Part shown: positions 1 to 64,000 of the stretch, piece after piece
Layout: each line of letters starts with the position of its first letter
Numbering within the stretch: position 1 is the first letter of the stretch
DNA from: an uncultured Acidobacteriota bacterium
GTDB taxonomy: Bacteria > Acidobacteriota > Vicinamibacteria > Vicinamibacterales > CAVVIG01
Reading direction: 5' to 3'
DNA length: 64,000 bases
Assembly (NCBI GenBank): GCA_963720005.1
Contig: CAVREM010000042.1
Span: 307,918-371,917, forward strand
Made by a program: the position numbers and the translations under genes
The notes under the pieces: model-generated
The model's database searches: none
The model's input: the letters and a program-made list of their open reading frames with translations, nothing else
What the model was told of the DNA's origin: nothing

Positions 1-718
1 CTCCGCCGGATCCGCCGCCCAGCCCGTACTTCAGGAACGTCGGTGCGAGGACCACCGCGGGAATCGCGGCGCCGAGCGCCAGCCACCCGGCGTGGCGGAC
101 GCCGCGCAGGTACAGCGCGATGGCGGCGAAAGGCAGCAGCAGCGGCCACGACATGTGGACCTGCATGATCCAGGTGAGTGCCGCGCCCATCGCCAGAAAC
201 GCGGTGCGCGGCGAGAGGACGCCGATCGACAACGCTGGCACGGCTTCGAAGAAGCCGACGAAGAAGAGGATCGCGGCCGGCAGCACGTACGAGGGGTTAT
301 TGACGTGTGTCGAGAACTGGAGCGTCCAGGGCGCGGTGAGCAGCCAGCCCCAGACCAGCCATCGAGGGAGCGATGGCTCGCGGCGGCAGATGTAGGCCGC
401 GAGCCCGCAGAGCGCGGCGAACGACAACACGTTGAGAAACACGAACGGCGCCTCGGGCACAGGCGCGATCCGGAGCGGCACGCCGACGAGCAGCGGCTGC
501 AGCGCTCCGGCAATCTGGCTCTGCGTCCAGACGACGTCGGGGCCGAAATACGGCCAGCCGCCGGTCGCGTAGTACCGCAGGCCCATCAAGTAGATCTGGG
601 TCTCGTCTTCCGACCAGAATTCCGACGATAGACCGAAGGCGAGACGGCCGAGGAAGAGAGCCGCGAGAGCGCCGATCCAGGCAGGGCGGCGCAGCGAGTC
701 GGGGATCCTCGTTTTCAG
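1..718 (-). CDS. Polytopic membrane protein, N-terminal part only (gene runs off the left edge); possibly glycosyltransferase-39/ArnT-like
   Basis: Absent from the ORF track because no stop lies in the window. My minus-strand translation from about 718 is uninterrupted and hydrophobic: RIPDSLRRPAWIGALAALFLGRLAFGLSSEFWSEDETQIYLMGLRYYATGGWPYFGPDVVW...WLLTAPWTLQFSTHVNNPSYVLPAAILFFVGFF. The start codon is unclear (CTG at 718?). Confidence 0.5.
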   Translation of the reverse strand, partial: MKTRIPDSLRRPAWIGALAALFLGRLAFGLSSEFWSEDETQIYLMGLRYYATGGWPYFGPDVVWTQSQIAGALQPLLVGVPLRIAPVPEAPFVFLNVLSFAALCGLAAYICRREPSLPRWLVWGWLLTAPWTLQFSTHVNNPSYVLPAAILFFVGFFEAVPALSIGVLSPRTAFLAMGAALTWIMQVHMSWPLLLPFAAIALYLRGVRHAGWLALGAAIPAVVLAPTFLKYGLGGGSGG

Positions 719-738
719 ATTTAAGATTGTCGATTGTA
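713..738. repeat. Half copy of the AT-rich AGATTTM-word element (TTCAGATTTAAGATTG)
   Basis: The sequence ttcagatttaagattgtcgattg matches the arm of the elements at 26453, 28119, 59210 and 62833. It lies in the divergent region between the membrane-protein gene and ubiE. Confidence 0.5.
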
Positions 739-740
739 CC

Positions 741-1454
741 GTGACCGACGTTTCGAAATCGGCGCCGAAGATCGCAGGCATGTTCGATGCGATCGCCGCC
801 CGCTACGACTTCCTCAATCACTTCCTGAGCGCCGGCATCGATCGGCACTGGCGGACCCAGGCGGTCCGCAGCCTCCGCCTGACCGGCTCGGAGCGCGTGC
901 TCGATCTCTGCACGGGCACCGGCGATCTGGCGATTGCGCTGCGCACCGGTCATCCGGGCGCGGCGCGGGTCGTCGGCGTCGACTTCGCGGCGGCGATGCT
1001 GGCGATGGGCCTCGACAAGGTGAGGCGGCGCGGACTCGCCGACCGCGTTCAACTGGTGCGCGCGGACGCGACAAGGGTGCCGCTGTCCAGCGGCTCGACC
1101 GACGCGGTGACGATCGCGTTCGGCATCAGGAACGTCGAAGACCCGGAGGCTGCCTGCCGGGAAATGCTTCGCGTCCTCGTCCCTGGCGGCCGTCTCGCCA
1201 TCCTCGAGTTCGCGGTGCCTTCGTCGCCGCTGGTTCGCTCGGTGTACATGACCTATTTCAAGCACGTGCTGCCGCGGCTGGGCCGGCTGATCTCGCGCCA
1301 CGACACGGCATACGAGTACTTGCCGGCATCGGTCGGCGCGTTCGCGTCGCCTGCTGAGTTTGCCTCGCTCCTTCGTGGCGCGGGATTTGTCGATGTTTCA
1401 ATACGCCCGCTCACGGCCGGGGCCGTGGTGCTGTACAGCGCGCGAAAGCCCTAG
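741..1454 (+). CDS. ubiE: Demethylmenaquinone/ubiquinone C-methyltransferase (UbiE/MenG)
   Basis: Intact 237-aa ORF. It has the FDAIAARYDFLNHFLSAGIDRHWR signature and the SAM motif VLDLCTGTGD typical of UbiE/MenG. Confidence 0.9.
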   Translation: MTDVSKSAPKIAGMFDAIAARYDFLNHFLSAGIDRHWRTQAVRSLRLTGSERVLDLCTGTGDLAIALRTGHPGAARVVGVDFAAAMLAMGLDKVRRRGLADRVQLVRADATRVPLSSGSTDAVTIAFGIRNVEDPEAACREMLRVLVPGGRLAILEFAVPSSPLVRSVYMTYFKHVLPRLGRLISRHDTAYEYLPASVGAFASPAEFASLLRGAGFVDVSIRPLTAGAVVLYSARKP

Positions 1455-1456
1455 CT

Positions 1457-1600
1457 GGAGAGTTGGTGAGTTGGTGAGTTGGAGAGTTAGAGAGTTGGAG
1501 AAGTTAGAAGGTTGGAGAATCGGTGAACTCGAGAGAGTGCGGATCGCAGACTTACGCCTGAACTCATCAACTCTCCAATTCGCGAATTCACCAACTGACT
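1457..1600. repeat. Imperfect palindrome built from GAGTTGGT words
   Basis: Left arm gagttggtgagttggtgagttggagagttagagagttggagaagttagaaggttggagaatcggtgaactc. About 28 nt of core follows, then the right arm gaactcatcaactctccaattcgcgaattcaccaact, which uses the reverse-complement words. Confidence 0.8.
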
Positions 1601-1649
1601 CGAAGCGGGCCGTCCAGAAGTCGCCGCTGGTATACTGGCTAACTACCTG

Positions 1650-2606
1650 ATGTACTTCGATTTCGAGGACCACCGTCCGGACATCACGCCGGTGGGTCGC
1701 GCCATCTCGTGGCGCGAGGGGGTCCTCATCTCGATCATCGTCCACATGGCGATGGTGATCGCGCTGTTGACGGCGCCCCAGTGGCTCGTCGCCCGCGTGG
1801 CGCGCGTCCCCGAAGCGGTGGTTGCCGCCAAGGACGACAAGGACGAGCCGCTCCGGTTCGTCTTCGTCCAGCCGAGAGTGGACACGCCCGCGCCGAAACC
1901 GCCGCCGCGCGCCGACCTTTCCGACAAGGATCGCGTCGCCCGGGCACCGGAGCGTGCCGAGAAGCCGACGAATCCGCTCCCGTACTCGCGCGGCAACTCA
2001 CGGGAACTGGCTGAGGCGATGGAGGCGGAGCGAGCGCGCGGCCGCGGCCCCGTTCCTGAACCTCAGGCCGGCCCGCCGGCGGAACCGAGTCCGCCCGACA
2101 ACACGCCCGTGCCCGAGCAGCAGTCGGCGCTGGCGCTGCCGGTGCCTCCGAAGCCGCCGCCGACGACCGGCGCGGGCGGCCGTGCCTCGGGCGGTTCGCT
2201 CGGCGACGCCCTGCGGAACCTCGAGCGGTACGTCCAGGATCAGCAGCTGAGCAACCCGCGCGGCGCTCCCGGCGACTTCGGTCCGGCGATCCAGTTCGAC
2301 ACGATGGGCGTCGACTTCGGCCGCTGGATCCTGCGCTTCAAAGCGCAAGTCGAGCGCAACTGGTTCCCGCTGATTCCCCAGGCGGCGATGTCGATGAGCG
2401 GCCACACCGTGCTCACCTTCAATGTCCACAAGAACGGCACGATCACCGACCTCACCGTCGTGCAGCCGTCGCGGATCGACGGCTTCAACAACGCGGCGTA
2501 CGGCGCGATGGTCTCGTCGAACCCGACCATCCCGCTGCCGCCCGAGTATCCGGCCGACAAGGCATTTTTCACGGTCACGTTCTTCTACAACGAATCGCCA
2601 CGCTAG
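1650..2606 (+). CDS. TonB-family energy transducer
   Basis: N-terminal TM helix (VLISIIVHMAMVIALL), a Pro-rich spacer (TPAPKPPPR...PVPPKPPPT) and a TonB C-terminal-like domain (FGRWILRFKAQVERNWFPL...LTFNVHKNGTITDLTVVQPS). Confidence 0.75.
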   Translation: MYFDFEDHRPDITPVGRAISWREGVLISIIVHMAMVIALLTAPQWLVARVARVPEAVVAAKDDKDEPLRFVFVQPRVDTPAPKPPPRADLSDKDRVARAPERAEKPTNPLPYSRGNSRELAEAMEAERARGRGPVPEPQAGPPAEPSPPDNTPVPEQQSALALPVPPKPPPTTGAGGRASGGSLGDALRNLERYVQDQQLSNPRGAPGDFGPAIQFDTMGVDFGRWILRFKAQVERNWFPLIPQAAMSMSGHTVLTFNVHKNGTITDLTVVQPSRIDGFNNAAYGAMVSSNPTIPLPPEYPADKAFFTVTFFYNESPR

Positions 2607-2616
2607 TACTTCGCAG

Positions 2617-2815
2617 CAGTTCACACTTCCATGTGCACCGTTCTCGGTTCGTGTTCAAGTTCGGTTCTCGGTTCTCGGTTCTCGGTTCGGTTCGGTTCGG
2701 GGTTCGCAGTTCGAGGTGCCCCGAACCCAGAACCCCGAACTCCGAACCGCGAACCTGGAACGTCGAACCGAACTTGAACACGAACCGAGAAGTGAGAACC
2801 GAGAAGCGTGAACTG
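2617..2815. repeat. 199-bp palindrome built from GTTCTCG/GTTCGGT words
   Basis: Termini are CAGTTCAC...GTGAACTG. A perfect 27-bp arm match links 2641-2667 (ttctcggttcgtgttcaagttcggttc) to 2765-2791 (its reverse complement). The centre is near 2716. It fills the tonB-miaA spacer. Confidence 0.9.
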
Positions 2816-2909
2816 TAGAGTGCTTTGAGTTCGATGTTCACCCGTACGCAGCAACTGGGCCTGCTCATCCTGCTGTTCGTGTTCATCGCGTACGTGCTTC
2901 TGCGGACTG

Positions 2910-3875
2910 GTGCGTAAGTCGACTTCCGGCGCCGCGACCGACCGTCCGCTCGTCGTCGCGATTCTCGGGCCGACGGCGACGGGGAAGAGCGCGTTGGCGC
3001 TCGCGCTGGCCGCCGAGCGTCGAGGTGAGATCGTCAACTGCGACTCGACCGCTGTGTACCGGGGCTTCGACATCGGCACCGACAAGGTCGCCCCCGGCGA
3101 TCGACGCGGTATCCCGCATCACCTGATCGACATCGTCGATCCCACAGCCGAATACACGGCGGCCCAGTACGCCAGGGATGCCGCGAGCGTGATCCGAGAG
3201 GTGCAGGCGCGTGGCGGGCTGCCGTTCGTCGTGGGCGGCACCGGCTTCTATTACCGCGCGCTCACGCGGGGGTTGTTCCCGGGGCCGGGCAGTGATGCGG
3301 CGCTCCGGCAGCGGTTGGCAGATGTCGCCGAGCGGCGCGGCGTCACGTTCCTGCACCGCATGCTCGCTCGCGTGGATCCCGAGTCGGCACGGCGAATCCA
3401 GCCGCGCGACCTGAAGCGGATCGTTCGGGCCCTCGAAGTGTTCTTCCTGACCGGCCGCCCGCTCACTGCCCACTTCGCCGAAACGACCTCACCCATCCCC
3501 GACATGGACGTGCTCGCCATCGGGCTGCGGATGCCGGCCGCGGCCATCTCGGCGCGCGTGACGAGGAGGGTTGATGAGCAGTTCGAGCGCGGCCTGCTCG
3601 ACGAGATTCGCGGCCTGCTCAGGAGCGGCGTGCCCGAGAGCGCGCGTCCGTTTGGCGGGCTCGTGTATCGGCAGGCGCTCGAACACCTGCGCGGGGTCCG
3701 CGACGAAACAGCGACGCGGGCGCTCATCGCGCAGGAGAACCGCCGCTACGCGCGCCGGCAGTTGATCTGGTTCCGCAAAGAGCCTAATCTACGGTGGTTT
3801 GACGGCCCCGGCGACTCGCCCGCCACGATCGCAGCCGTCGACGAGATGCTGAATCACGCCTTCTCCGCTCACTAG
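2910..3875 (+). CDS. miaA: tRNA dimethylallyltransferase
   Basis: Intact ORF with P-loop ILGPTATGKSALALALA, followed by IVNCDSTAVYRGFDIGTDK and RRYARRQLIWFRK. Confidence 0.9.
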   Translation: MRKSTSGAATDRPLVVAILGPTATGKSALALALAAERRGEIVNCDSTAVYRGFDIGTDKVAPGDRRGIPHHLIDIVDPTAEYTAAQYARDAASVIREVQARGGLPFVVGGTGFYYRALTRGLFPGPGSDAALRQRLADVAERRGVTFLHRMLARVDPESARRIQPRDLKRIVRALEVFFLTGRPLTAHFAETTSPIPDMDVLAIGLRMPAAAISARVTRRVDEQFERGLLDEIRGLLRSGVPESARPFGGLVYRQALEHLRGVRDETATRALIAQENRRYARRQLIWFRKEPNLRWFDGPGDSPATIAAVDEMLNHAFSAH

Positions 3876-3878
3876 CGC

Positions 3879-5066
3879 GTGGCCGCGCCCACCCGAGCCA
3901 TCGTCATCGTCCTCGACAGCGTCGGAATCGGCGCGTTGCCGGATGCCGCGGCGTACGGCGACGAAGGCAGCGACACGCTCGGCCACATCGCGAGCGCCGT
4001 GCCGCTGGCCTTGCCGACCCTGCGCGCGCTTGGTCTCGGCCGCGTCGCCGCGCTCGGCCCGGCCTCCGGTCAGGGCACCAATTCCAGCCTTCCGACTGCT
4101 GTCGGCCGCATGGCCGAAGCTTCGGCCGGCAAGGATTCCGTCACGGGTCACTGGGAGATGATGGGCATCGTGCTGGATCGCGCGTTTCCGGTCTTCCCAC
4201 ACGGATTCGCGCCGGAACTCCTCGACGATTTCTCGCGCCAGACCGGCCGCGGCGTGCTCGGCAACAAGGCCGCGTCGGGGACGGTGATCATCGACGAGCT
4301 CGGCGCCGAGCACATGAAGACCGGCAAATGGATCGTGTACACGTCGGCCGACAGCGTGTTTCAGATCGCCGCGCACGAGGAAATCGTGCCGGTTCCTGAG
4401 CTCTATCGTGCGTGCGAAGTCGCCTACCGGCTGGCCGGGGAAGGGTTGGGTGTCGGCCGCGTCATCGCCCGCCCGTTCATTGGCAGACCGGGCCATTTCA
4501 AGCGGACGGCGAATCGCCGCGATTTTGCGCTGCCGCCCGCCGGCGAGACACTGCTGGATCGGCTCAGGTCGGCGTCGCGCCCGGTCGTCGCAATCGGCAA
4601 GATTGAAGATCTGTTTGCAGGCCGCGGCATCTCGACGGCGATTCATACGGCGAGCGACGAGGAGGGAATGGACAGCGTCCTCACTCAGATGGGGTCGGTG
4701 CGCGACGGGTTGATCTTCACCAACCTCGTCGATTTCGACACGCAGTACGGCCATCGCAACGACGTCACCGGCTACGCACAGAACCTGGAGCGGTTCGATG
4801 TGCGGCTTGCCGGGCTTCTGCCTCTCCTGCGAGACGACGACCTGCTCGTCGTCACGGCCGACCACGGCAACGATCCGGCGACGCCGAGCACCGATCATTC
4901 ACGCGAATACGTACCGATCATTGCCGCCGGCGCCGCCGTCCGCGCCAACACCGACCTGGGCACGCGACAGACCTTCGCCGATCTCGGCCAGACGCTCGCC
5001 GACCTGTTCGGTGTCGGTCCGCTCGCCCACGGCACGAGCTTCCTGCATGAGATCCTCGAGCGATAA
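3879..5066 (+). CDS. deoB: Phosphopentomutase
   Basis: Intact 395-aa ORF with IVIVLDSVGIGALPDAAAYGDEGSDTLGHI, DSVTGHWEMMG and VTADHGNDP. Confidence 0.9.
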   Translation: MAAPTRAIVIVLDSVGIGALPDAAAYGDEGSDTLGHIASAVPLALPTLRALGLGRVAALGPASGQGTNSSLPTAVGRMAEASAGKDSVTGHWEMMGIVLDRAFPVFPHGFAPELLDDFSRQTGRGVLGNKAASGTVIIDELGAEHMKTGKWIVYTSADSVFQIAAHEEIVPVPELYRACEVAYRLAGEGLGVGRVIARPFIGRPGHFKRTANRRDFALPPAGETLLDRLRSASRPVVAIGKIEDLFAGRGISTAIHTASDEEGMDSVLTQMGSVRDGLIFTNLVDFDTQYGHRNDVTGYAQNLERFDVRLAGLLPLLRDDDLLVVTADHGNDPATPSTDHSREYVPIIAAGAAVRANTDLGTRQTFADLGQTLADLFGVGPLAHGTSFLHEILER

Positions 5067-6111
5067 AGGCGCGGCGACGCTGCGCGAGCAACTGGAGGCG
5101 CGGGAGCGCGAGATCCTCGCGCCGCAGGCGACCAAGAGCGCCGATTCGCGCGGACGGCTGCGGCCGGAGCGGGAGGACGATGTCCGGCCGGCCTTTCAGC
5201 GGGATCGCGATCGCATCATCCACTGCAAGGCATTCCGGCGCCTCAAGCACAAGACACAGGTCTTTTTCGCGCCGACCGGCGACCATTACCGGACGCGCCT
5301 CACGCATACCCTCGAGGTGTCACAAATCGCGCGGACGATCGCCAAGGTGCTGCGCCTGCACGAGGAACTGACTGAGGCGATTGCGCTCGGCCACGATCTC
5401 GGGCACTCGCCGTTTGGCCACGCCGGCGAGCGGATCATCGATCGGCTGATGCCCGGGGGGTTCAACCATTACGAGCAGAGCCTCCGCATCGTCGACGTCC
5501 TGGAAAACGATCGCCGCGGCCTGAACCTCACCTGGGAAGTCCGCGACGGGATCGCGAAGCATTCGAAAGGGAAGTCGGGGGCGCCGGTGGGCATGCCGGC
5601 GGGGGTTCGCGCGAGCACGATCGAAGGCCAGATCATGCGCGTCGCGGACCTGATCGCCTACGTCAACCACGACATCGACGACTCGACGCGCGCGGGGTTG
5701 ATCCGTCCCGAAGACCTGCCGCGCGACCTGGTCGCCACGCTCGGCTCGACCTCGTCCGCACGAATTGGCACGCTCGTCACGGACGTCGTCACGGAGACGC
5801 TCGACGCGAACCTGACCGAGATTCGAATGAGCCAGCCAATTCTCGATGCCGTCCTCGGGCTGCGCGCGTTCCTGTTCGATGCGGTCTACGAGAACACGGT
5901 TGCCACCGCCGAGTTCCGGAAAGCCTCCGACATCCTGTCAGGGCTGTGGGAGAAGGTCCGCGAGCGGCCCGGCGAGTTCCTCGATGCGAAGACCGTCGAG
6001 GACGAAGGGCTCGACGCGGCGACGCGCGACTTCGTGGCCGGCATGACCGACCGCTACGCCATCCGCCTGTTCGAACAGCTTTTCATTCCCAAGCCCTGGG
6101 CGATTGAATAG
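5047..6111 (+). CDS. dgt: dGTP triphosphohydrolase-like HD-domain protein
   Basis: The in-frame ATG at 5047 overlaps the deoB 3' end. Motifs FQRDRDRIIHCKAFRRLKHKTQVF and HD motif ALGHDLGHSPFGHAGE are present. The upstream part of track ORF 4798.. is out-of-frame deoB sequence. Confidence 0.8.
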   Translation: MRSSSDKGAATLREQLEAREREILAPQATKSADSRGRLRPEREDDVRPAFQRDRDRIIHCKAFRRLKHKTQVFFAPTGDHYRTRLTHTLEVSQIARTIAKVLRLHEELTEAIALGHDLGHSPFGHAGERIIDRLMPGGFNHYEQSLRIVDVLENDRRGLNLTWEVRDGIAKHSKGKSGAPVGMPAGVRASTIEGQIMRVADLIAYVNHDIDDSTRAGLIRPEDLPRDLVATLGSTSSARIGTLVTDVVTETLDANLTEIRMSQPILDAVLGLRAFLFDAVYENTVATAEFRKASDILSGLWEKVRERPGEFLDAKTVEDEGLDAATRDFVAGMTDRYAIRLFEQLFIPKPWAIE

Positions 6112-6120
6112 TCGGCCCGC

Positions 6121-6335
6121 TGAGGCGCGCGCCTCCGAACGGCTCGCGCCCGGGCAGTTTCAGGCGCTTCGTCTAACAAGGTCGAACTCGCGAGCGAGCG
6201 CGCGAGCGAGCCACGCGAACGGAGCGCGCCGGGAAGCGGCGCGCGAGAGCCCGCCTTCGCGCCGAAGGCGTTCGGCGAGGTCTCGCCGTAGCTTTAGCGG
6301 AGGCGGAAGCTGTGGGGACGGGCGACTCGGGTACG
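6121..6335. repeat. GC-rich dispersed repeat (related copy at 61575-61735)
   Basis: Shares the ordered blocks GCGAGCGAGCCAC, GCGAACGG, GCGCGCCGG, AGCGGCGCGCGAGAG and (C/G)TGTGGGG with 61575-61735. It also carries the CCGCCTTCGC word seen in the 45181 arrays. Confidence 0.6.
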
Positions 6336-6355
6336 ACTTGGTGTATGGTGGCGGC

Positions 6356-7906
6356 ATGCTGAAACCGCTCAGGGCGATCGTGACGCGGCGCGGGTTTCTC
6401 GAGCGTCTCGGCCTGATTGGCGGCTCCTCGCTGGTGATGACCGCCATGAGCTCGCTCGACCTGATGGCCGGGCAGGCCGGCGCTCGCCCTTCCTTGTCCG
6501 GCCGGCCCAGGAAGTCCCGGGTCGTCGTGCTGGGCGGCGGCATGTCCGGGCTCGTCGTCGGCTATGAGTTGGGACGATTGGGCTACGACTACCACATCCT
6601 CGAAGCCCGCGACCGGGTCGGCGGCCTGGCGTGGGCTGTGCGACGCGGAAGCGAGCACACCGAGATCGGCGGCGAGCGGCAGGTCTGCAGATTCGATCCG
6701 GGGCTTTACATCAACGTCGGACCCTGGCGAATCCCGTACACGCATACCGGCGTGCTGGACTACTGCAAAGAGCTCGGCGTGCCGATGGAGCTGTTCGTCA
6801 ACGAGGCCGAGAACGCCTACTTCTTCTACGACAGCGAGGCGGCCGGGCCGCTGGCGGGCAAACGCGTGCGCCTGCGCGAGGTGAAGGCCGACATGATCGG
6901 CCATACCAACGAGCTCATCGTCAAGGCCATCGATCAACATCAGCTCGACGTGCCGATGACGGCCGAGGACAGGGAGCGGTTCGTCACCTATTTGACCGCG
7001 CACGGCTACCTCGATGCGAAGAGCCATGCCTACGGCGCGTTCGAGACGCGCGGCGGCGGCGATCCCTACGCGCTTGACGTGCTGCTCCGGGGCGGGTTCG
7101 CCAACCGGCTGCGTTCGATCGCCGCACGCTCCGGCACGTCGACAGGATTGATGTTCCAGCCGATCGGCGGCATGGACCAGATTACGTTCGCGTTTCAGCG
7201 TGTGCTCGGCAGGAACCACATCACGCTCAACGAGGAGGTGTTGTCGGTCCATCAGACCGAGACCGACGTGAAGGTCGTGCACGCGAACACCAAGAGCGGG
7301 AAGAAGACGGAAACCACCGCCGATTACGTCGTCGTGTGCATGCCGCTGTCGTGCCTCGCGAACGTCGACATCAACCTGTCGCCGGAGCTGATGACCCACG
7401 TCACGGCCACCACTTACAGCAACAGCGCGAAGATGGGGCTCGCCATGAAGCGCCGGTTCTGGGAGGAGGACGACCAGATCTTCGGAGGACACCTGTATTC
7501 GAGCTTGCCGCTTGGCGAGTTCTCGTATCCGTCGAACGACTATTTCTCGGCCAAGGGCGTGCTGCTCGGGCTATACGCGAACGGACCGGTCGGCGACCTG
7601 CTGGATCAGCCGGTGCAGGCGCGTGTGGATCACGTGCTGACACACGCCAGCAAAGTACACCCGCAGATTCGCCAGGAGTTCGAGAGCGCCTACGCGGTCT
7701 GGTGGCGCAAGGTGAAGTACAGCCTCGGCGGGTACGCGTCCGGCGGCGGCGCCTCGCGCCGCCAGGCGCTCGCGGTGATGGACAACCGCATCGTCATCGG
7801 CTCGGCGGCGACCGCGCCGTATTCCTCGCCCGATTGGCTCGAGGGCGCCGTGGCGTCGGCGTGGACGGCGCTCACCAACCTGCACGAACGCGCGATGCGC
7901 GCGTAA
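6356..7906 (+). CDS. Secreted (Tat-type signal) flavin amine oxidase / L-amino-acid-oxidase family protein
   Basis: Start at the internal ATG 6356 (MLKPLRAIVTRRGFLERLGLIGGSSLVMTAM, twin-arginine RRGFL). Dinucleotide-binding motif VVVLGGGMSGLVVGYELGRLGYDYHILEARDRVGG. The track ORF prefix 6104-6355 lies in repeat DNA. Confidence 0.75.
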   Translation: MLKPLRAIVTRRGFLERLGLIGGSSLVMTAMSSLDLMAGQAGARPSLSGRPRKSRVVVLGGGMSGLVVGYELGRLGYDYHILEARDRVGGLAWAVRRGSEHTEIGGERQVCRFDPGLYINVGPWRIPYTHTGVLDYCKELGVPMELFVNEAENAYFFYDSEAAGPLAGKRVRLREVKADMIGHTNELIVKAIDQHQLDVPMTAEDRERFVTYLTAHGYLDAKSHAYGAFETRGGGDPYALDVLLRGGFANRLRSIAARSGTSTGLMFQPIGGMDQITFAFQRVLGRNHITLNEEVLSVHQTETDVKVVHANTKSGKKTETTADYVVVCMPLSCLANVDINLSPELMTHVTATTYSNSAKMGLAMKRRFWEEDDQIFGGHLYSSLPLGEFSYPSNDYFSAKGVLLGLYANGPVGDLLDQPVQARVDHVLTHASKVHPQIRQEFESAYAVWWRKVKYSLGGYASGGGASRRQALAVMDNRIVIGSAATAPYSSPDWLEGAVASAWTALTNLHERAMRA

Positions 7907-8006
7907 ACGCACGTCGTCGCGGAATCTGTTCGCACGGCTCAGCTGCCGGTCGACGAATCGGCCGAACAGCCGCGGGAGGCGTCTAACCTCCATACAAAGC
8001 CGACGT

Positions 8007-11329: not shown

Positions 11330-11352
11330 CCACCGACCTGGCGGGTAACGTT

Positions 11353-17262: not shown

Positions 17263-17265
17263 GCG

Positions 17266-49631: not shown

Positions 49632-52320
<2,689 letters not shown>

Positions 52321-54948: not shown

Positions 54949-54965
54949 TTTTACCAGTTTATCGG

Positions 54966-55936: not shown

Positions 55937-55957
55937 GCGGCAGTATACAATGGCAGT

Positions 55958-57057
55958 GTGATCACCAATGTCACGCGGCCATCGATGCCGACCGAGCCGC
56001 TCGTCGCGCGCAAGCTCGAATTCGGCAAGATGTTCACGCCGAACTTTTTCGTCGCGGAGTATCGCAGCGGCGAATGGCGCAACCCGAGAATCCAGCCGCT
56101 CGAGCCGTTCTCGCTCCATCCGGCGTCGATGGTCTTCCACTACTGCCAGACGATCTTCGAGGGGCTGAAGGCCTACCGGCACGACAACGGGCGGATCGTC
56201 CTGTTCCGGCCGGAGCTGAACGCCGCGCGCTTCCGTCGCTCGGCCGAGCGGATGCGCATGCCCGACGTGAGCGACGCATTCTTTCTCGAAGCCGTTCAGG
56301 CGCTGGTCGAGAACGAGCGGCACTTCGTGCCGGCGGCGCCCGGCTGTCTCTACATCCGTCCGGTGCTGATGGGCGTCGACGCCGCGCTGGGCGTCAAGAG
56401 CTCGAACGATTTCATCTTCTTCATCATGACGCTGCCGTCGGGCCCGTACTTCAAGGACGCCGGCGAAGGTCCCGGGTCGATCAACGTGATGGTCACGCAA
56501 GTCGACCGTGCGCTCGGCGCCGGGGCTGATGGGCAGCGTCAAGGCCGGCGCGAACTACGCAGGGACGCTGAAGGTCGACCGAGGACGCGAAGGCGCTCGG
56601 CTGCGCGCAGGTGCTGTTCCTCGACGCGCGGGAGCACAAGTACCTGGAGGAACTGGGCGGCATGAACATCATGTTCGTGCAGGGCAACACGCTCCGGACG
56701 CCGCCGCTCGGCGACACCATCCTGAACGGCGTGACGCGGGCGTCGCTCGTCGAGATCGCGCGCGATCTCGGCATGGAGACCAGCGAAGCGCCGATCGCGA
56801 TCGACGAGATCGTCGCCGGCGTGAAGGACGGCACGATCACCGATGCGATGGCCTGCGGCACCGCCGCCGTCGTCATCGGCATCAAGCGGCTGGTGTTCGA
56901 TGACGGCTCGTCGCTCGAGCTGCCCGGCGCCGTCCCCGCGGCTGCCACGACGAAGCTCTACAACGCGCTCGTCGACATCCAGTACGGCCGCGCCGCCGAC
57001 CGGCACGGCTGGGTGCGCGAGGTTTGCCGCGTCGAGACTTCAGCGACGTCGAAGTAG
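55958..57057 (+). CDS. ilvE: Branched-chain amino acid aminotransferase (frame broken at about 56505 and about 56570)
   Basis: LHPASMVFHYCQTIFEGLKAYRHDNGRIVLFRPELNAARFRRSAERMRMP, PGLMGSVKAGANYAG and AKALGCAQVLFLDAREHKYLEELGGMNIMFV are present. The start is GTG 55958 or ATG 55985. Confidence 0.85.
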
Positions 57058-57094: not shown

Positions 57095-57136
57095 CTGAGA
57101 CTCTGACAGACTCTGAAGATCTGAGATTTCAGACTC
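57095..57136. repeat. AGACTCTG/AGATCTG-word tandem between convergent genes
   Basis: The sequence is ctgagactctgacagactctgaagatctgagatttcagactc. Confidence 0.6.
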
Positions 57137-58280
57137 TTACTTCTTAATCCACTTCTGAACGCAGCCGCCCGACTTGCTGGTGCCGCAGCCGCCGGTCAGT
57201 CCCGCGAAGATGTTGCCCGCATCGTCGGCGGCCATCCCCTCGGGATTGGTGCCTTCGATGAATTGATGCAGCGAGCCGTCGCGGGCGCTGCCGATGCGAA
57301 TCCCTTGTTTCCAGCCCACGTTGCGGAACTGCGGGCCGGGGCCGCCCTCGAACGACGCGGCCGGGCCGGCGAGGCGGATGCCCGACTCGGAATCGGCGAC
57401 GATCATCGTGTCGTCCTTCAGGATGGTGATGCCGCTCGGCCGCCCGAACTGCTTCCATGAATCCAGATAGTTCATGTCCTTGTCGAAGATCTGGATCCGG
57501 TTGTTCGAGCGGTCGGCGACGAACAGCCGGCCGCGGGAATCGACGGCCAGCGCGTGCGGCCCCATGAACTCGCCGGCGCCGCGTCCGAGCTTGCCGTAGG
57601 CGGCGACGAACTTGCCGCTGGTCGTGTAGCGCACGAGCCGATCGCCGTCCTGCTGCGCGGTCGACGGCCGCGGCCAGTGGCCGTCGCCGATGATCACGTC
57701 CCCATTCGGCAGGATCGCGCACGACGTGGGGCCGACGAAGGTGTCCTGCCCGGCCTGCGACACGCCCAGCTTGCCAAGCGTCAGCAGCAGCTTCCCTTCG
57801 GGACTGAATTTGTAAACCACGAAGCCCTTGCCGGCCGCGCCGGCGACGTCGCCGAACGGCCCGCTGTCGCCCGCCCAGATGTTGCCGTCGCGGTCGCGGC
57901 ACATGCCGTGGCCCGACACGAACATGCCGTTGCCGAAGCTCTGGGCGATCTTGCCCGACGGGTCGAAGTAAACAATCGGCGGCTCGGTCCGGAGGAGCGC
58001 CCAGGTGCCGCCCTTCTGGTCGGGCAGGAAGTTGATCGCCGGCCCCCACTTCATGCCGGGGTTCAGCGTCGGCCAGTTCTCGATCATCCGGTACGGGATT
58101 GCTCATCAGGTTCTGTCCCGGGTCCTGGCGCGCGCCGCCGCCCGGGCCGGATCCAGTGAACGGTCCACCGTCCGGCGGCGGAGGCGCCGGCGGCTGCTGC
58201 TGCGCCGAGACGAGCGTCCACGAGGCGATGAGCGCGACAATCCCAATCACGGGCCACGTTTTGAGGCTGAACGAGCGCAT
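57137..58280 (-). CDS. Secreted NHL-repeat / six-bladed beta-propeller protein (frame broken at about 58090)
   Basis: ATG 58280 follows GGAGGA and gives the signal peptide MRSFSLKTWPVIGIVALIASWTLVSA. Repeated motifs such as GPHALAVDSRGRLFVADRSNNRIQIF and PEGMAADDAGNIFAG are present. Confidence 0.75.
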
Positions 58281-58292
58281 AAGAACTCCTCC

Positions 58293-58460: not shown

Positions 58461-59205
58461 GTGCACCGTTTCTTCGCGCCATCCCTGGACGCCGGGGACG
58501 AGACCGTTGCGCTCCCGCGTGACGAGGCAGAGCACCTCACTCGAGTGCTGCGCATCGCCGCCGGAGACGAAGTCGCCGTCTTCGACGGGCGCGGTCACGA
58601 ATACCTGGCCCGGGTCATTGGCGCGGTCCGCCGCGATGTCCGCCTGCAGATTCTGTCGCGCATCGAGCCGGCCGCTGAACTGCCGGTGGCGGTGACGCTC
58701 GTGCAAGCCATTCTGAAGGGCGACAAGATGGACGACGTGGTCCGCGACGCGGTGATGCTCGGCGTGGCGGCCATACAGCCGGTCGTGACACGCCGCACGG
58801 AATTGACCATCGCCGCCCTCCTCCGCGGCGCGCGCCCCGACCGGTGGCGCAGGGTGGCGCTGGCCTCGGTGAAACAATCGCGGCGCGCCGTGCTGCCCGA
58901 GATTCGTACGCCGCTGACTTTTGAAACGTACCTCGACGAGCCGCCTGCCACGATGCGGCTGATGCTGGTCGAGCCGGGGGTCGACGTCGACACGGAATCG
59001 CTGGGGGTGCTTCGCGGTGTGCGAGCGCCGCATGATGCCTCCGTCATCGTCGGCCCGGAAGGCGGTTGGGACCAACGGGAGTGGGCGGCGGCGCAGGCTC
59101 GCGGCGTGCAGCTGATCTCGCTCGGGCCATCGCACGCTCCGCGCCGACGCCGTGCCGATCGCGGCGCTCAGCGTCCTGAATTTCTTGTGGGACAGCGCGT
59201 GCTAG
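58461..59205 (+). CDS. rsmE: 16S rRNA (uracil1498-N3)-methyltransferase RsmE (frame broken at about 59125)
   Basis: MHRFFAPSLDAGDETVALPRDEAEHLTRVLR... and VIVGPEGGW are present. The true C-terminus RTLRADAVPIAALSVLNFLWDSAC* is in a shifted frame and ends at 59205. Confidence 0.8.
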
Positions 59206-59209
59206 ACTG

Positions 59210-59280
59210 GAATTTAAGATTTCAGATTTCAGATTTAAGATTGGCGAGGATCTGGCGGGCAGCCTGACCCCGGCCAAATC
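59210..59280. repeat. AT-rich AGATTTM-word element, copy C (left arm + core only)
   Basis: The arm gaatttaagatttcagatttcagatttaagattgg is followed by the core cgaggatctggcgggcagcctgaccccggccaaatc. The complementary arm is absent. Confidence 0.8.
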
Positions 59281-59329
59281 CGACCGCCAGCAGTAGACCA
59301 CCGGTCGACGAGACACGAGGAAGAAATCT

Positions 59330-60424
59330 ATGTCACGCGTGCCGTCCGTCCTGTGGAATTCACTCGCGGCCATCCTGTTCGGCGCCGCACTTGCCGCGCA
59401 GTCGTCGCAGAGCGAGGTCGACGCCCGCATCGCGGCGGCGCGATCCGCCGCGGGGATGGACTTCCGCAATACGTTCCTTAATCTCTGTCTGCCGTCCGGT
59501 GGCGGTGGCGCTCGTCAGGGCGCCGGCGCGCCGGCCGCTGGGGCGAACCCGCCCGCTGCCGCGCGAGGTGCGGCCCTTGGAACAGGCGCGGCCGGACGCA
59601 GCGCTGGTGCGCAAGCGCCTGCGCGCGGCGGCGCGGGGCAGCCGCCGGACCGCGCGAACTGGTACGCACCGCCCTTCAAGATCTTCGACAACTTCTATTG
59701 GCTTGGGACCCGGCAGCATTCCTCCTGGGCGCTCCAGACGAGCGAGGGTCTGATCATCATCGACACGAACTTCGACTGGGCGACGCAGCCGGAGATCATC
59801 GACGGTCTTACGAAGCTCGGGATGAACCCTCGTGACATCAAGTACGTCGTCATCAGCCACGCGCACGGCGATCATGACCAGGGCGCGGCCGAACTGCAGA
59901 AGCGCTTCGGCGCCAAGGTGGTGATGGGCGAGGCGGATTGGGCATCGACGCTGCAGCGCCCAGCCACGGCTGCAGGTGGTGTGCCGACAAAGGACATCGC
60001 CGTCGGGCCCGACGTCTACAAGCTGACGCTGGGAGATACGAGCGTTCAGATCGTTCCGACGCCCGGCCACACAGCCGGCACGCTGTCGTACGTGTTCCCA
60101 GTGAAGGATCAGGGCCGGACCGTAATCGTCGCGTATTCGGGCGGGACGTTGACCGGAAACTTCGGCACGAACGGCGTGCGGTGGGACGAGTACATCGCGT
60201 CGCAGCGCAGGATCGCAAAAGTAGCCGCCGACGCGGGCGCCGCCGTGATTCTGTCCAATCACAGCGAATATGACGGCGCCTACACGAAAGCGCGCCTCAT
60301 CGCCGCCCCGCGTCAGGTCGGCGAAAACCACCCGTTCATCGTGGGCCCCGACGCCGTCCAGCGATACTTCACGGTGATGGCCGAATGCGCGACGGCGTCA
60401 AAAATGCGGGTGGGAGCGAAGTAA
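59330..60424 (+). CDS. Secreted metallo-beta-lactamase-fold hydrolase
   Basis: Intact ORF with a signal peptide, a Gly/Ala/Pro-rich linker, then LIIIDTNFDW...VVISHAHGDHDQGAAEL (HxHxDH) and PTPGHTAGT. Confidence 0.8.
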   Translation: MSRVPSVLWNSLAAILFGAALAAQSSQSEVDARIAAARSAAGMDFRNTFLNLCLPSGGGGARQGAGAPAAGANPPAAARGAALGTGAAGRSAGAQAPARGGAGQPPDRANWYAPPFKIFDNFYWLGTRQHSSWALQTSEGLIIIDTNFDWATQPEIIDGLTKLGMNPRDIKYVVISHAHGDHDQGAAELQKRFGAKVVMGEADWASTLQRPATAAGGVPTKDIAVGPDVYKLTLGDTSVQIVPTPGHTAGTLSYVFPVKDQGRTVIVAYSGGTLTGNFGTNGVRWDEYIASQRRIAKVAADAGAAVILSNHSEYDGAYTKARLIAAPRQVGENHPFIVGPDAVQRYFTVMAECATASKMRVGAK

Positions 60425-60438
60425 CAGGGGCACCCGAC

Positions 60439-61506
60439 CTACTTGGGCATCGGAAGAAACGCGATCCGGTCGCCACGCTGCGATCCCAGCCAGAGTTCGT
60501 TCCCAATCTGGATGCCCGTCGTGGACGTCACGAAGCCGTCGATGGCAGGATGCTGGAAGATTCGGCGGAACTCCAGCGTCTTCGGGTCGATCCGCGCCAC
60601 GTTGGACGTCTCGCGCAGCGGTTCGCGCGGTTCGACGATCGACCGTCCGTCCTTGTCCGTATGGCCTGCAGCAAAAAGGACCGAACCGTCGAGTGACAGC
60701 CGGACGTTATCCGGCCGGAATCCGAGTTTGATGACGTCCTTCTGAATCGGAGTCCGGCCACGCGACAGGCGCGTGAGCTTCTCTTCGGCCCATCCGGCGA
60801 TGTACAGCCACTGCCCATCCTTTGAGATCTCGACTCCGTTCGGTGCCGTGCCCTCGCTCCCCGGGACCAGGCTCCATCCTGTCGCCGGCAAATACTGCCT
60901 GATGTCGGCGCTGTTGCTCGTAGCGGCGAAACCCCCGTCCGGCAGCGCGACCACGCCGTTGAAGACCTGCTTCGGCGGCGCCGGCGCGCAGCCGACCCAC
61001 GTAAGGATCGGAGGTGCGGCTCCCGCGTTCAGTTCGAATACTTCAATCGATTCGCGCGTGCCGTGATGGACCACGTAGAGCGTGTGGACCGCACGTTCCC
61101 CCGGCTTGAGGTAGAGACCGTGCGCTCTGAACGCATCCGGCTTTTCGATATCGAGCGGACCAGGGCAGATGGGATAGGCCTTGCGGTCGAACCGCACGTT
61201 GGGCTTCGGCGTCGGAAACAGCACGGTGGCGGTCTTCTGTCGCACGCTGACGAGGTGCAGGCGGCCGCCTTCCCGGTTTCCCGAGGCAATCAGCCACTCC
61301 GTGCCTGGAACAATCGCGAGGTCTTCAGGACTGACGAGCGTGCAGATGAACTGGATCTCTCCGACCGGCGTGCAGGGCGCCGCACCGACGGTCGCGTAGC
61401 CGGGCGCTTGCCGGCTGGTTGCTGAAGGAGCCTGTCCACCGGCTTGCAACACTGTCGACACCAATGGCAATAGCACGAACAGAATCGACGAGAGTGCTTT
61501 CATCAA
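60439..61506 (-). CDS. Secreted beta-propeller protein (paraoxonase/SMP-30/arylesterase-like guess)
   Basis: Intact ORF with AGGAGG before ATG 61506 and the signal peptide MMKALSSILFVLLPLVSTVLQA. PNGVEISKDGQWLYIAGW is present. The family call is tentative. Confidence 0.5.
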   Translation of the reverse strand: MMKALSSILFVLLPLVSTVLQAGGQAPSATSRQAPGYATVGAAPCTPVGEIQFICTLVSPEDLAIVPGTEWLIASGNREGGRLHLVSVRQKTATVLFPTPKPNVRFDRKAYPICPGPLDIEKPDAFRAHGLYLKPGERAVHTLYVVHHGTRESIEVFELNAGAAPPILTWVGCAPAPPKQVFNGVVALPDGGFAATSNSADIRQYLPATGWSLVPGSEGTAPNGVEISKDGQWLYIAGWAEEKLTRLSRGRTPIQKDVIKLGFRPDNVRLSLDGSVLFAAGHTDKDGRSIVEPREPLRETSNVARIDPKTLEFRRIFQHPAIDGFVTSTTGIQIGNELWLGSQRGDRIAFLPMPK

Positions 61507-61574
61507 GTTACCAACCTCCTGCGGCTTGGTGTCCCGTATCGGAGATTCGGTGATCCGGGCTACAAGCTATCTCA

Positions 61575-61735
61575 AAACCAGCGAGCGAGCGAGCGAGCCA
61601 CCCACCTTCGCAGCGTAGCCGCCGCTGCTACGGTGGGCAGGCGCGAACGGCCTGTCCGCCGTAGCGTAGCGAAGCGGAAGCGCGCCGGCGCAGCGGCGCG
61701 CGAGAGAGCGTGTGGGGGAGTCCGAGGGGCGCTAG
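61575..61735. repeat. GC-rich dispersed repeat (related to 6121-6335)
   Basis: The sequence is cagcgagcgagcgagcgagccacccaccttcgcagcgtagccgccgctgctacggtggg...gcgaacgg...gcgcgccggcgcagcggcgcgcgagagagcgtgtggggg. Confidence 0.6.
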
Positions 61736-61743
61736 CCCCTCGG
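61722..61743 (-). terminator. Strong hairpin 5 nt after the cyclase stop codon (no U-tract)
   Basis: CCGAGGGGC-GCTA-GCCCCTCGG forms a 9-bp GC stem. Confidence 0.4.
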
Positions 61744-61748
61744 TAAGC

Positions 61749-62741
61749 CTAGAAGATCGCGAGCGGATTCAGCGGCGAGCCGGTGCCGCCCGGAACTCTC
61801 AATGGCGCGCCGACGAACATGAAGGTCCAGCGGTTGCGCGTCCGAGCAGCGCGTGCGACTGCGTCGAGGTCCAGGTTGTCGAGTATCGGCATGCCAAGTC
61901 CCACCAGCACGAGCTCGTGCAGCGGATTGATCAGCCCCTCCACGCCGGAGGGCATGACGTCGCTCACGCCGTCGGAACCGATCACGGCCACGTCTCGCGC
62001 CTTGAGCCACAGGGCGACCGACGCATGCGAACCGGCCCCTTCCGAGATGAAGTTCCACGATCCCTTCTGACGGACGCGCTCCCATCGGCCTGTCCGGATG
62101 AGCAGCACGTCGCCGCTCCCCACCTTCACACCCGTCTTCGCTTCCCACGCCTCGAGGTCCTTGCTCGTGAGGGCAGTCCCCGGCTCGAGGAAGTCCACGC
62201 CGCGCAGCCACGGCATGTCGACCAGGACGCCGCGCGTGACGATGCCCTCCTTCATGTTCTGAATGCCGAGCTTGCGGGCTCCGTTCGCTTGCGCGTCCTC
62301 GTACGCGAACCCGTTGTAGAACTTTCCCTTGTGGGCGAAGTGCGGAAGCCCGTCGACATGCGAGTGCGCAAAGCCGTGATACTGGACCGAATAGCGGTCG
62401 CCCGCCACCTGTTGTTCACCCAACTTGCTGAGCGAGAGCTGATGCTCGAACGGGCTGCCGTTATTTGCATCGCGCTCCTTGTTGAGGTCCAGCGCGAGCG
62501 ACACAGACACGCCATCTCGAACCAGCGCGGCGGCAGCCTTGCGCTTCTCGGGCGTGATCAGGTTGAGGGTCCCCAGTTCGTCTTCCTTTCCCCAGCGCCC
62601 CCAATTGGAGATCTGCTGCATCCAGGCGTCGAACTGCTGGCGCGTGACAGCCTGCGCTCGCTGAGCGGCCGGCGCGGCGCCGGCCGCCAGCGTCGTGAGA
62701 AGGAGAGTGGCGGTCAGCAGTCTTTGCCTCGGTGCGCGCAT
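61749..62741 (-). CDS. Secreted cyclase-family protein (kynurenine-formamidase-like fold)
   Basis: Intact ORF with AAGGAG before the ATG and the signal peptide MRAPRQRLLTATLLLTTLAAGAAPA. HGFAHSHVDGLPHF, GVLVDMPW and GDVLLIRTGRW are present. Confidence 0.7.
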   Translation of the reverse strand: MRAPRQRLLTATLLLTTLAAGAAPAAQRAQAVTRQQFDAWMQQISNWGRWGKEDELGTLNLITPEKRKAAAALVRDGVSVSLALDLNKERDANNGSPFEHQLSLSKLGEQQVAGDRYSVQYHGFAHSHVDGLPHFAHKGKFYNGFAYEDAQANGARKLGIQNMKEGIVTRGVLVDMPWLRGVDFLEPGTALTSKDLEAWEAKTGVKVGSGDVLLIRTGRWERVRQKGSWNFISEGAGSHASVALWLKARDVAVIGSDGVSDVMPSGVEGLINPLHELVLVGLGMPILDNLDLDAVARAARTRNRWTFMFVGAPLRVPGGTGSPLNPLAIF

Positions 62742-62832
62742 GTGCGGTCTCCTTAAGTGTTGCGCCCAGTCGTAAAACCGTCGGCAGCAGCCGGATCATG
62801 CGCCAAGGCGTGGGAACTCGCAAGGTTAACGG

Positions 62833-62928
62833 GAATTTAAGATTTCAGATTTAAGATTTAAGATTGGCGTGCCGGACTGGGCCGCCAGTCGCGCCGTCAC
62901 CAATCTGAAATCTGTAAATCTGAAATTC
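62833..62928. repeat. AT-rich AGATTTM-word hairpin element, copy D
   Basis: The arm gaatttaagatttcagatttaagatttaagattgg is followed by the core cgtgccggactgggccgccagtcgcgccgtca, then the arm ccaatctgaaatctgtaaatctgaaattc. Confidence 0.9.
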
Positions 62929-62937
62929 CATCTCGAA

Positions 62938-64000
62938 ATGCTTCCTCGGTTGCTAGGGCGACGTGCGCTTCTCGGAATCGTAATCATCTGTGCCGCGGTC
63001 GCTGGACTTGCGGGCGGAGGAGCCGGCGATTGATGGTCGCAAGCAGGCGCGCGCCGCGCGCCTCGCGGCGTGGATCGATTCGGCTCGACGGCCGGCTGGA
63101 CGAGGAAGCGTGGCAATCAGGCCGCGCCGATCACCGAGTTCGTGCAGGCCGAGCCGATCGAAGGGAGCGCCTCCGACCGATGCGATGGAGGTGCGCTTCC
63201 TGTTCGACGACAGCGCGCTCTGGGTCGGCGCGCGAATGCGCAGCGGTCCGGGCGTCGCCGATCCAGGCGCCGATGAGCCGCCGCGACGACGGCGTCGCAG
63301 GCCGAGTACCTGCAGATCGAGCTCGACACCTACCTCGATCGCCGCACCGCGTACATGTTCGGCGTCACCGCCTCCGGCGTCCGGCTCGATCACTACCATC
63401 CGACCGACAACGAAGACGACACCGACGCGCAGTTCGATCCGGTCTGGGAAGCGCGGACCCACGTCGACGCCGACGGCTGGACCGCGGAACTGTGGGTGCC
63501 GTTCTCGCAGCTGCGCTTCAACGACCAGCCGCGAGCGCGTCTGGGGCCTGAACGTCAAGCGGTGGCGTCCGCAGCTGAACGAGGAGGACTACTGGGTGGT
63601 CGTCGGCCGCACCGAGCGCGGCTGGGCGTCGCGGTTCGGCGAGCTGCGCGGCATCGACGGCGTGCCGCAGACGACACCGCCTCGAGGTGCTGCCTTACGT
63701 CTCGGCTTCGTCGCGGATGACCGGCAACCGCGATCCGCAACAACCCGTTCGACGACGGCGCTGAACCTGGGCGGACGCGTCGGCGCCGACATGAAGGTCG
63801 GCATCGGATCGAACCTGACGCTCGAGGCGACGATCAACCCCGACTTCGGCCAGATCGAAGCCGACCCGGCCGAAGTGAACCTGACGGTGTTCGAAACGAT
63901 CTTCGACGAGCGGCGGCCGTTCTTCATCGAAGGCAACAGCGTGCTCGAGGCGGGGACGTCGCAACTTCTACTACTCGCGCCGCATCGGCGCGCGGCCGAC
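62938..64000 (+). CDS. Secreted carbohydrate-binding-family-9 / DUF5916-like protein, 5' part (runs off the right edge), 6 or more frame breaks
   Basis: ATG 62938 gives MLPRLLGRRALLGIVIICAAVAGLAGG. Pieces in all frames include IRLDGRLDEEAWQ, APITEFVQAEPIEGSASD, YLQIELDTYLDRRTAYMFGVTASGVRLDHYHPTDNEDDTDAQFDPVWEARTHVDADGWTAELWVPFSQLRF, and GADMKVGIGSNLTLEATINPDFGQIEADPAEVNLTVFETIFDERRPFFIEG. Confidence 0.65.

Follow-up and report, generated by a model that had tools for sequence, protein, structure and literature searches.

Clustered single-base frame breaks in a 64-kb Vicinamibacterales contig segment very probably reflect consensus errors in a long-read metagenome assembly

A 64,000-nucleotide (nt) stretch from an uncultured Acidobacteriota bacterium of the order Vicinamibacterales (GenBank assembly GCA_963720005.1, contig CAVREM010000042.1, positions 307,918 to 371,917; here called the window) raises the question of whether its many frame-broken genes, several of them essential, are decaying or have been misread. 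A preliminary description put the breaks at about 45 to 50, strongly clustered, and attributed them to consensus error; of this, the clustering stands (P = 7e-5), while the count comes here to ~51 to 54 breaks, spread over ~22 genes. Comparison with related sequences leads us to conclude, with high confidence, that the breaks do not reflect gene decay but are errors of a single base each, made in the consensus when a metagenome was assembled from long reads. We base this reading on indels private to the window, intact short-read relatives, the same class of error in Nanopore-only relatives, a low ratio of nonsynonymous to synonymous substitution rates (dN/dS), clustering, and a bias toward +1 shifts. 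As such, it is a known kind of artefact and a data-quality matter, with no new biology. The window has 66% G+C, and neither tRNA genes nor Rfam families were found in its 64 kb.

Breaks were checked by three independent routes: by Viterbi segmentation on codon usage, with a model trained on the window's long open reading frames (ORFs); by stitching frame segments and scanning the product with Pfam for one unbroken match over the junctions; and by tblastn and multiple DNA alignments against intact orthologues. The Viterbi path shows repeated same-strand frame switches without a gene boundary in the regions named previously and single long ORFs elsewhere. In every testable gene, one Pfam match runs continuously through the stitched junctions (Aminotran_4 in the class IV aminotransferase and again in ilvE, ketoacyl-synt, ETF, ETF_alpha, MFS_1, tRNA-synt_2c, T2SSE, and Pkinase). 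The break positions given in the preliminary description lie within ~30 nt of those found here. Its counts also agree for most genes: four in the class IV aminotransferase, etfA, and alaS; three in the Sel1 protein and pilT; two in fabF and ilvE; one in the MFS transporter, the leuS end, holA, ADOP-2, recX, the NHL-repeat gene, and rsmE; and two in the gene starting at 8007 (the 8007 gene), etfB, and the Fe-S oxidoreductase, where two or more had been claimed.

The breaks fall into five patches (9.5 to 11.2, 27.0 to 35.2, 43.25 to 44.6, 48.7 to 59.1, and 63.0 to 64.0 kb), inside which their density is 2 to 4 per kb, reaching ~10 per kb in the DUF5916 gene. For the 46 placed breaks, the largest break-free gaps measure 16.2 (16,190 nt), 9.5, 8.1, 4.1, and 3.9 kb. 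Under uniform placement, the largest gap would reach 16.2 kb or more with a probability of 7e-5 analytically and 6e-5 by simulation, which upholds the earlier argument that a 15.7-kb clean run would be very unlikely under uniform error. The four largest gaps together cover 37.9 kb (18.3 kb expected), and none of 100,000 simulations attained this sum; counted in 2-kb bins, the breaks have a variance/mean ratio of 3.2, which none of 20,000 simulations reached.

Regions described earlier as clean are indeed so, with intact homologues aligning there in one frame. The first (1 to 9499, 9.5 kb) holds miaA, a deoB-like mutase gene, a dGTPase gene, an amine oxidase gene, and two thirds of the 8007 gene, counted from its 5' end. 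The longest (11166 to 27044, 15.9 kb) holds genes for DUF3999, a 1234-amino-acid (aa) DUF2339 protein, ADOP-1 (927 aa), PadR, DinB, and a phosphodiesterase, followed by yceD, rpmF, plsX, fabD, fabG, and acpP; its ORFs are long and unbroken, and junctions within it come only from single relatives' assemblies (L096 or L099). Nearly all of leuS lies in the third (35173 to 43255, 8.1 kb), while the fourth (59128 to 62900, ~3.8 kb) is an island not present in relatives. The only frame junctions seen inside clean stretches are errors of single related assemblies and not of the window. Junctions at ~25475 (fabD) and ~36440 were rejected as window breaks, as they lie in relatives, and a Viterbi junction at 20877 proved to be a gene boundary, the start of the DinB gene. 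Also rejected was the idea that breakage is limited to conserved regions common to co-occurring relatives: leuS, miaA, plsX, fabD, and fabG are conserved yet clean, and breaks do occur in the Sel1 gene, which is lineage specific, and in the 8007 gene. The patches do not simply track conservation.

How do the same genes look in related assemblies? LeuS (40726 to 43257) assigns the window to the Vicinamibacterales, its best genome matches being metagenome-assembled genomes (MAGs) at 80 to 82% identity, including CAWEDP010000002.1 (Microflora Danica MFD04944.bin.2.37). Relatives were gathered through the stitched AlaS and IlvE proteins, cluster members, and exact matching of the 80-aa acyl carrier protein. 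We compared short-read Joint Genome Institute (JGI) contigs (L088, L092, L095, and L101) and ENA contigs named "contig_N" (L093/L099, L094, L096, and others). On the JGI contigs the genes are intact and full-length (AlaS, 880 aa; IlvE, 364 aa; holA product, 326 aa; also fabF, etfB, and etfA), with 0.0 to 0.8 private 1-nt indels per kb and none in the 5.7 kb of L092. In sharp contrast, the Nanopore-only Microflora Danica contigs L093, L094, L096, and L099 carry 1.5 to 4.3 private 1-nt indels per kb, mainly insertions (insertions to deletions, 50:5 in L094 and 18:2 in L096), at sites other than those of the window. Gene calls on ENA contigs are fragmented, with alaS split in L093 and L094, and fabF, the ETF genes, and plsX split in L096, L098, L100, L102, and L105. 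The 4-kb alaS region of L094 holds 32 private insertions and 6 private substitutions, an imbalance that is beyond any natural process. The identity of ERZ25039533:contig_17872 with the MFD04944 MAG contig ties the ERZ25039xxx ENA records to Microflora Danica, a long-read project. Possible Nanopore-associated errors have been reported in low-coverage MAGs (PMC12313526), and near-finished R10.4 consensus requires ~40-fold coverage, indels otherwise leading to frameshifted gene calls (PMC9262707).

Every break in the window that can be placed against close relatives is a window-private 1-nt indel. In the multiple alignments, nearly all breaks consist of one base that the window alone has. Across 19.1 kb of alignment, 35 insertions and 7 deletions of 1 nt are private to the window, and some of these apparent deletions are really insertions common to L096 and L099. 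The frame moves by +1 in ~42 of the ~49 breaks of known direction; secure -1 events lie at 28887, 29550, and 30154, and shifts of 2 at ~10748, ~11095, and ~29400. A +1 bias of this strength is the signature of a process, not a mutational spectrum. Adding or removing 1 nt restores the frame, the breaks are private to this assembly, and the same class of error occurs elsewhere in assemblies of the same technology.

Could the breaks nevertheless be real mutations in genes undergoing pseudogenisation, for example, under relaxed selection or after a change of lifestyle? They are truly present in the deposited sequence, and Uma2-type endonuclease genes, one of which is among those broken, are often real pseudogenes. 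The genes struck, however, include essential single-copy ones hit repeatedly (alaS four times, pilT three times, fabF and ilvE twice, plus holA and the leuS stop), in kilobase-scale clusters that disregard gene function. Once the extra bases are taken out, comparison with close relatives gives dN/dS values of 0.15 and 0.11 for alaS, 0.05 for pilT, 0.08 for the kinase gene, 0.15 for ilvE, 0.07 for the NHL-repeat gene, 0.16 for rsmE, 0.22 for holA, 0.19 for recX, and 0.14 for the DUF5916 gene. This range, 0.05 to 0.22, is as low as in clean genes (leuS, 0.06; fabD, 0.22), which answers the dN/dS check proposed in the preliminary description. All five pieces of alaS are constrained (0.04 to 0.19). 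The terminal alaS branch of the window has 22 synonymous and 5 nonsynonymous changes, a nonsynonymous share below those of two intact relatives (33:15 and 160:56, synonymous to nonsynonymous), and no relaxed selection was seen in the broken genes, this branch included. The stitched proteins show no in-frame stops or multibase lesions beyond the 1-nt shifts, and no break is shared with relatives in the multiple alignments. The broken genes are thus under strong purifying selection. With the extreme +1 bias, and with the same class of error present in related Nanopore assemblies and absent from short-read contigs, decay is highly improbable. The earlier attribution of breaks in essential genes to consensus error is borne out by the private 1-nt indels, low dN/dS, and intact short-read relatives.

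The near-uniform +1 direction would also fit real shifts that the cell corrects when it expresses the genes, whether through +1 frameshifting (programmed or tolerated), slippage during transcription, or RNA editing. The sites themselves speak against this. No motif at insertion sites is significant after correction (31 window sites and 118 pooled long-read sites; 256 4-mers), and no common motif or slippery site is present. The best 4-mers, GATC and ATCG, reach only p ~0.015 uncorrected over 256 tests; GATC, the top 4-mer at window sites, occurs 8 times versus 3.4 expected (p = 0.017, uncorrected), and it is about as frequent in clean as in broken zones (8.5 and 9.5 per kb, respectively). Homopolymer tracts for slippage are lacking, the sites are unconserved, orthologues read straight through, and a single gene holds as many as 10 shifts in 1 kb. 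Expression-level correction is therefore extremely unlikely as an account of the breaks.

The same site data also weigh against consensus error, the reading that we prefer. Long-read consensus indels are expected to concentrate in homopolymers, and the preliminary description had pointed to homopolymer context; yet the insertions are not homopolymer linked. Among 31 inserted bases, 22 stand alone, 7 form a run of 2, and 2 form a run of 3; C (13) and G (11) outnumber T (4) and A (3), so that G/C makes up 77%, compared to ~66% in the window. Across pooled long-read insertion sites, 85 of 118 inserted bases differ from both neighbors. Furthermore, at a few positions two or three independent long-read assemblies share a frame-shifting extra base (alaS 50130, window plus L093; ~25475 in fabD in L096, L097, and L099; 30315 and 31119 in the Fe-S gene in L096 and L099). 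Such recurrence suggests a context-dependent, systematic component besides random errors, one not to be expected from low coverage alone. We infer the sequencing platform of the window from its relatives, and the Uma2 gene, the least secure of the broken genes, could be a genuine pseudogene.

Two other origins of the extra bases take up these features. They might stem from other data handling, for example if divergent contigs or haplotypes had been merged, or if the record had been corrupted by accident or on purpose; insertion-only changes outside homopolymers, in near-random context, resemble random insertion more than textbook Nanopore error. Independent Microflora Danica contigs (L094 and L096) show the same pattern, however, making it a property of the assembly class, and we consider an origin in data handling very unlikely. 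Alternatively, the extra bases might be a base-calling or consensus response to patchy, noncanonical DNA modification common to related Vicinamibacterales, as hinted by the G/C-rich inserted bases, the sites that are error prone in several assemblies, and the occurrence of insertions with hardly any substitutions. We give this only a slim chance; if true, the error patches would map the epigenetic, or modification, landscape.

Under consensus error, the source would be a long-read metagenome contig, most likely Nanopore-only. Its consensus would be locally poor, with ~2 to 10 spurious single-base indels per kb in five patches, and essentially correct between them. Mostly, the spurious base would be one extra, usually outside a homopolymer, shifting the frame of the local gene. 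Essential single-copy genes (alaS, fabF, holA, the leuS end, pilT, and ilvE) would appear broken because of these shifts, though the genes of the organism are intact. Candidate causes of the patchiness are dips in read depth, unpolished stretches, and co-occurring related strains merged in one consensus.

The individual breaks can be followed along the window. The 8007 gene (8007 to 10237, plus strand), whose ~740-aa product matches no Pfam family, has two +1 breaks, at ~9500 and ~9775. Full-length homologues of ~740 aa (P0280 to P0287) align in frame 3 (8106 to 9500), frame 1 (9499 to 9780), and frame 2 (9752 to 10222), and the Viterbi path switches frame at 9527 and 9813. The class IV aminotransferase gene (10334 to 11329, plus strand) is broken at ~10748 (shift of 2), ~10860 (+1), ~11095 (shift of 2), and ~11165 (+1); tblastn segments (P0285, P0350, and P0366) swap between frames 2 and 1 four times, and Aminotran_4 profile positions 1 to 220 of 223 run over the junctions.

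Beyond the longest clean stretch, fabF (26842 to 28118, plus strand) has +1 insertions at 27045 and 27131, each of them 1 nt long and private to the window when the sequences are multiply aligned. The frames in which six to eight relatives match it are 1, 2, and 3 in succession, and the ketoacyl-synt match spans the junction at 27137. In etfB (28240 to 29018, plus strand), a +1 break at ~28708 is followed by a 1-nt deletion at 28887; ETF positions 4 to 179 run over the junction, and several relatives and the multiple alignment support the junctions. Its neighbor etfA (29019 to 30020, plus strand) has four breaks, at 29280 (+1), ~29400 (shift of 2, within a GGTGGGGC-type repeat), 29550 (-1), and 29678 (+1), with ETF and ETF_alpha continuous over the stitched junctions; Viterbi segmentation and multiple alignment were also used here. 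The Fe-S/CCG oxidoreductase gene (30064 to 32016, plus strand) lacks 1 nt at 30154 and has a +1 insertion at 30664, where L002, L096, L097, and L104 pass from frame 3 to frame 1 (30662/30664), in agreement with the multiple alignment and the Viterbi path. Apparent window deletions at 30315 and 31119 in this gene were rejected, being the insertions common to L096 and L099.

The single break claimed earlier for the DUF374 gene (32080 to 32718, plus strand) is doubtful, and we count zero or one. Its 212-aa ORF is open in one frame, and homologues align in that single frame to 32083 to 32592 only, the multiple alignment being ambiguous at both ends; there may be a 1-nt insertion at ~32627, near the C terminus, or else the N-terminal 40 aa may contain a lesion. 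The Sel1-repeat gene (32890 to 33950, plus strand), carried by no close relative, has +1 breaks at ~33355, ~33610, and ~33800: Sel1-like segments succeed each other in frames 3, 1, 2, and 3 of the three-frame translation, and Pfam detects Sel1 repeats. The MFS transporter gene (34094 to 35412, minus strand) has a +1 insertion at 35172, seen as one extra base in pairwise alignment with L096 and as a tblastn frame junction, which the MFS_1 match spans.

Clean over almost its whole length, leuS (40726 to 43261, plus strand) has a +1 insertion at 43256 to 43258 that abolishes the stop and prolongs the ORF to 43434. In all relatives, leuS ends ...VVG* opposite 43257. Shortening a GGG run, as first suggested, does restore the stop; relatives nonetheless favor an extra T or A, as GGT ATA G in the window stands opposite GGA TAG in L093, and an inserted T or A (GG[T]ATAG) would be the better fit by this comparison, either correction restoring the stop. 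The adjacent lptE (43262 to 43805, plus strand), for which one break had been claimed, has at least one, a probable +1 near 43282 to 43314. Its signal peptide is in frame 2 and its mature part in frame 3; deleting one G at ~43313 gives back a canonical lipobox, while the multiple alignment places one extra base at 43282, within a 9-nt repeat, with an ambiguous start codon. That repeat (43265 to 43316, CTCTGCGYC, ~6 tandem copies) codes for the hydrophobic core of the LptE signal peptide and varies in copy number among relatives. In holA (43777 to 44815, plus strand), a window-private +1 insertion lies at 44579, with L002, L092 (JGI), and L093 aligning in frame 1 and then frame 2.

The ORF at 46176 to 48848 (plus strand) was considered as alaS and rejected; it encodes ADOP-2, a duplicated permease resembling MacB, and carries a +1 insertion close to the C terminus, at 48688. 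Residues 1 to 865 of the L088 orthologue align up to 48692 and no further, the DNA alignment shows one extra base, and Viterbi coding stops at 48686. A metagenome scan with ADOP-2 found only one close contig, of 1 kb. Upstream, the 650 nt that separate rpsT from the PadR/ADOP-2 pair are filled by three adjoining tandem arrays (45181 to 45831) with periods of 43 (5.7 copies, 98% identity), 48 (3.3 copies), and 33/66 (5 copies), and the block from 45.2 to 48.8 kb is not present in L093 and L094.

The true alaS (49635 to 52278, minus strand) carries +1 insertions at 50130, 50453, 51440, and 51580 to 51586. The intact 880-aa orthologue P0001 (JGI, L088; 96% aa identity) aligns to it in five pieces, in frames -2, -3, -1, -2, and -3, and the corresponding DNA alignment differs by four additional bases, each on its own, without further lesions; tRNA-synt_2c positions 6 to 550 of 552 run over two junctions. 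Compared to L092, the gene looks like a mosaic, with dS of 1.0 to 3.6 in the first 279 codons and 0.13 to 0.21 in the rest, a pattern consistent with recombination among related Vicinamibacterales lineages. DNA alignments and a tblastn junction place a +1 insertion at 52635 in recX (52322 to 52790, minus strand). For the Uma2-family endonuclease remnant (53090 to 53700, plus strand), the four or more breaks claimed become at least four on weaker evidence: Uma2-like motifs alternate among frames 1, 2, 1, 3, and 1 of the three-frame translation, and Pfam gives a weak Uma2 match (E = 0.001).

The +1 insertions in pilT (53691 to 54839, minus strand) lie at 54021, 54475, and 54737. They are window private against L093 and L094, with junctions against L006, L093, and L094 (frames -3, -1, -2, and -3), and T2SSE positions 12 to 287 extend over all three. 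The Ser/Thr protein kinase gene (54966 to 55945, minus strand), credited earlier with one break, actually has two, as multiple alignment reveals +1 insertions at 55277 and 55298, 21 nt apart; Pkinase positions 1 to 247 run over the junction. In ilvE (55985 to 57057, plus strand), +1 insertions at 56501 and 56577 are exactly the two 1-nt insertions that separate it from JGI contig L095 (95.3% nt identity), where the orthologue is intact (96% aa identity), and Aminotran_4 positions 2 to 222 span both. The NHL-repeat gene (57137 to 58283, minus strand) has a +1 insertion at 58095 by multiple alignment and a tblastn junction. The Methyltrans_RNA match of rsmE (58461 to 59210, plus strand) ends abruptly at 59123, next to a window-private +1 insertion at 59127, the one 1-nt insertion relative to L095 (dS, 0.095).

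Breakage is densest in the DUF5916 gene, the 5' part of which (62950 to 64000, plus strand) ends the window. Where six or more breaks had been claimed, we find 9 to 11 +1 insertions, at 63071, 63117, 63161, 63261, 63294, 63533, 63677, 63761, and 63962 and possibly also at 62915 and 63007. All are single-base insertions, private to the window against L093, L094, and JGI L095, with zero deletions.

Outside the genes, the window is rich in short repeats. Tandem arrays of an AAATCT[G/T] heptamer form intergenic inverted pairs at 26455-26486/26525-26558, 28118-28153/28193-28228, and 62833-62866/62901-62928, with arms of up to 24 nt at 100% complementarity, ~40 to 50 nt apart, which could form long A/T-rich hairpins. 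Further arrays lie at 59217-59243, 57117-57136, and 710-729; the pattern AAATCTGAAATCT, with up to 2 mismatches, gives 27 matches versus 0.25 expected, and L093, L094, and L099 have the same arrays at orthologous intergenic sites. Other intergenic arrays of 7- to 8-nt units (TCGGTTC/CCGAACC, TGAGTTSG, AGTCGGT, GACTACC, GTCCCGA, and TGGAGAGT) occur at 2640-2813, 35416-35491, 20279-20319, 48830-48875, 54899-54949, and 1456-1518, several forming inverted pairs with arms of 31 to 57 nt. Short-period repeat hairpins appear to be general in the intergenic regions of this lineage. Against the conserved gene order of relatives, lineage-specific islands lie at 6100-22900, 32650-34100, 37137-38370, and 59200-62830. 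The largest, of 17 kb, is inserted between the dGTPase gene and yceD-rpmF-plsX and contains the genes for the amine oxidase, the 8007 product, the class IV aminotransferase, DUF3999, the 1234-aa DUF2339 protein, ADOP-1, PadR, and DinB.

For users of this contig and of comparable low-coverage, Nanopore-only MAGs, the consequence is fragmented or chimeric proteins in kilobase-scale patches, affecting gene calls, pathways, completeness, pseudogene counts, and protein-family databases; alaS as five pieces and leuS reading through into lptE are examples. Taking the breaks for pseudogenes leads to a false inference of genome decay. Homopolymer-aware correction would fail, since the errors are insertion dominated and not homopolymer linked; frame-aware correction against orthologues, or re-polishing, would fix them.

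How does the window compare to known systems? Pseudogene-rich reductive genomes, such as those of Mycobacterium leprae and recent endosymbionts, show relaxed dN/dS, in-frame stops, and deletions, with dispensable genes lost first and lesions inherited by relatives. The window resembles the M. leprae case in its many frameshifted genes and differs in having no relaxed dN/dS, stops, deletions, or shared lesions. Programmed +1 frameshifting, as in prfB, uses sites that are single, conserved, and motif dependent. The window shares the +1 direction, whereas no motif marks its sites, which are numerous and unconserved. The closest likeness is to the indel errors of Nanopore-only assemblies (the IDEEL-test problem): in both, conserved genes are broken, one base added or removed restores the frame, and short-read assemblies of relatives are unaffected; a dependence on coverage and polishing would be a further likeness. 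Whereas the textbook Nanopore case is a homopolymer-length error, often a deletion, the window has mainly single-base insertions outside homopolymers, in a strongly patchy distribution.

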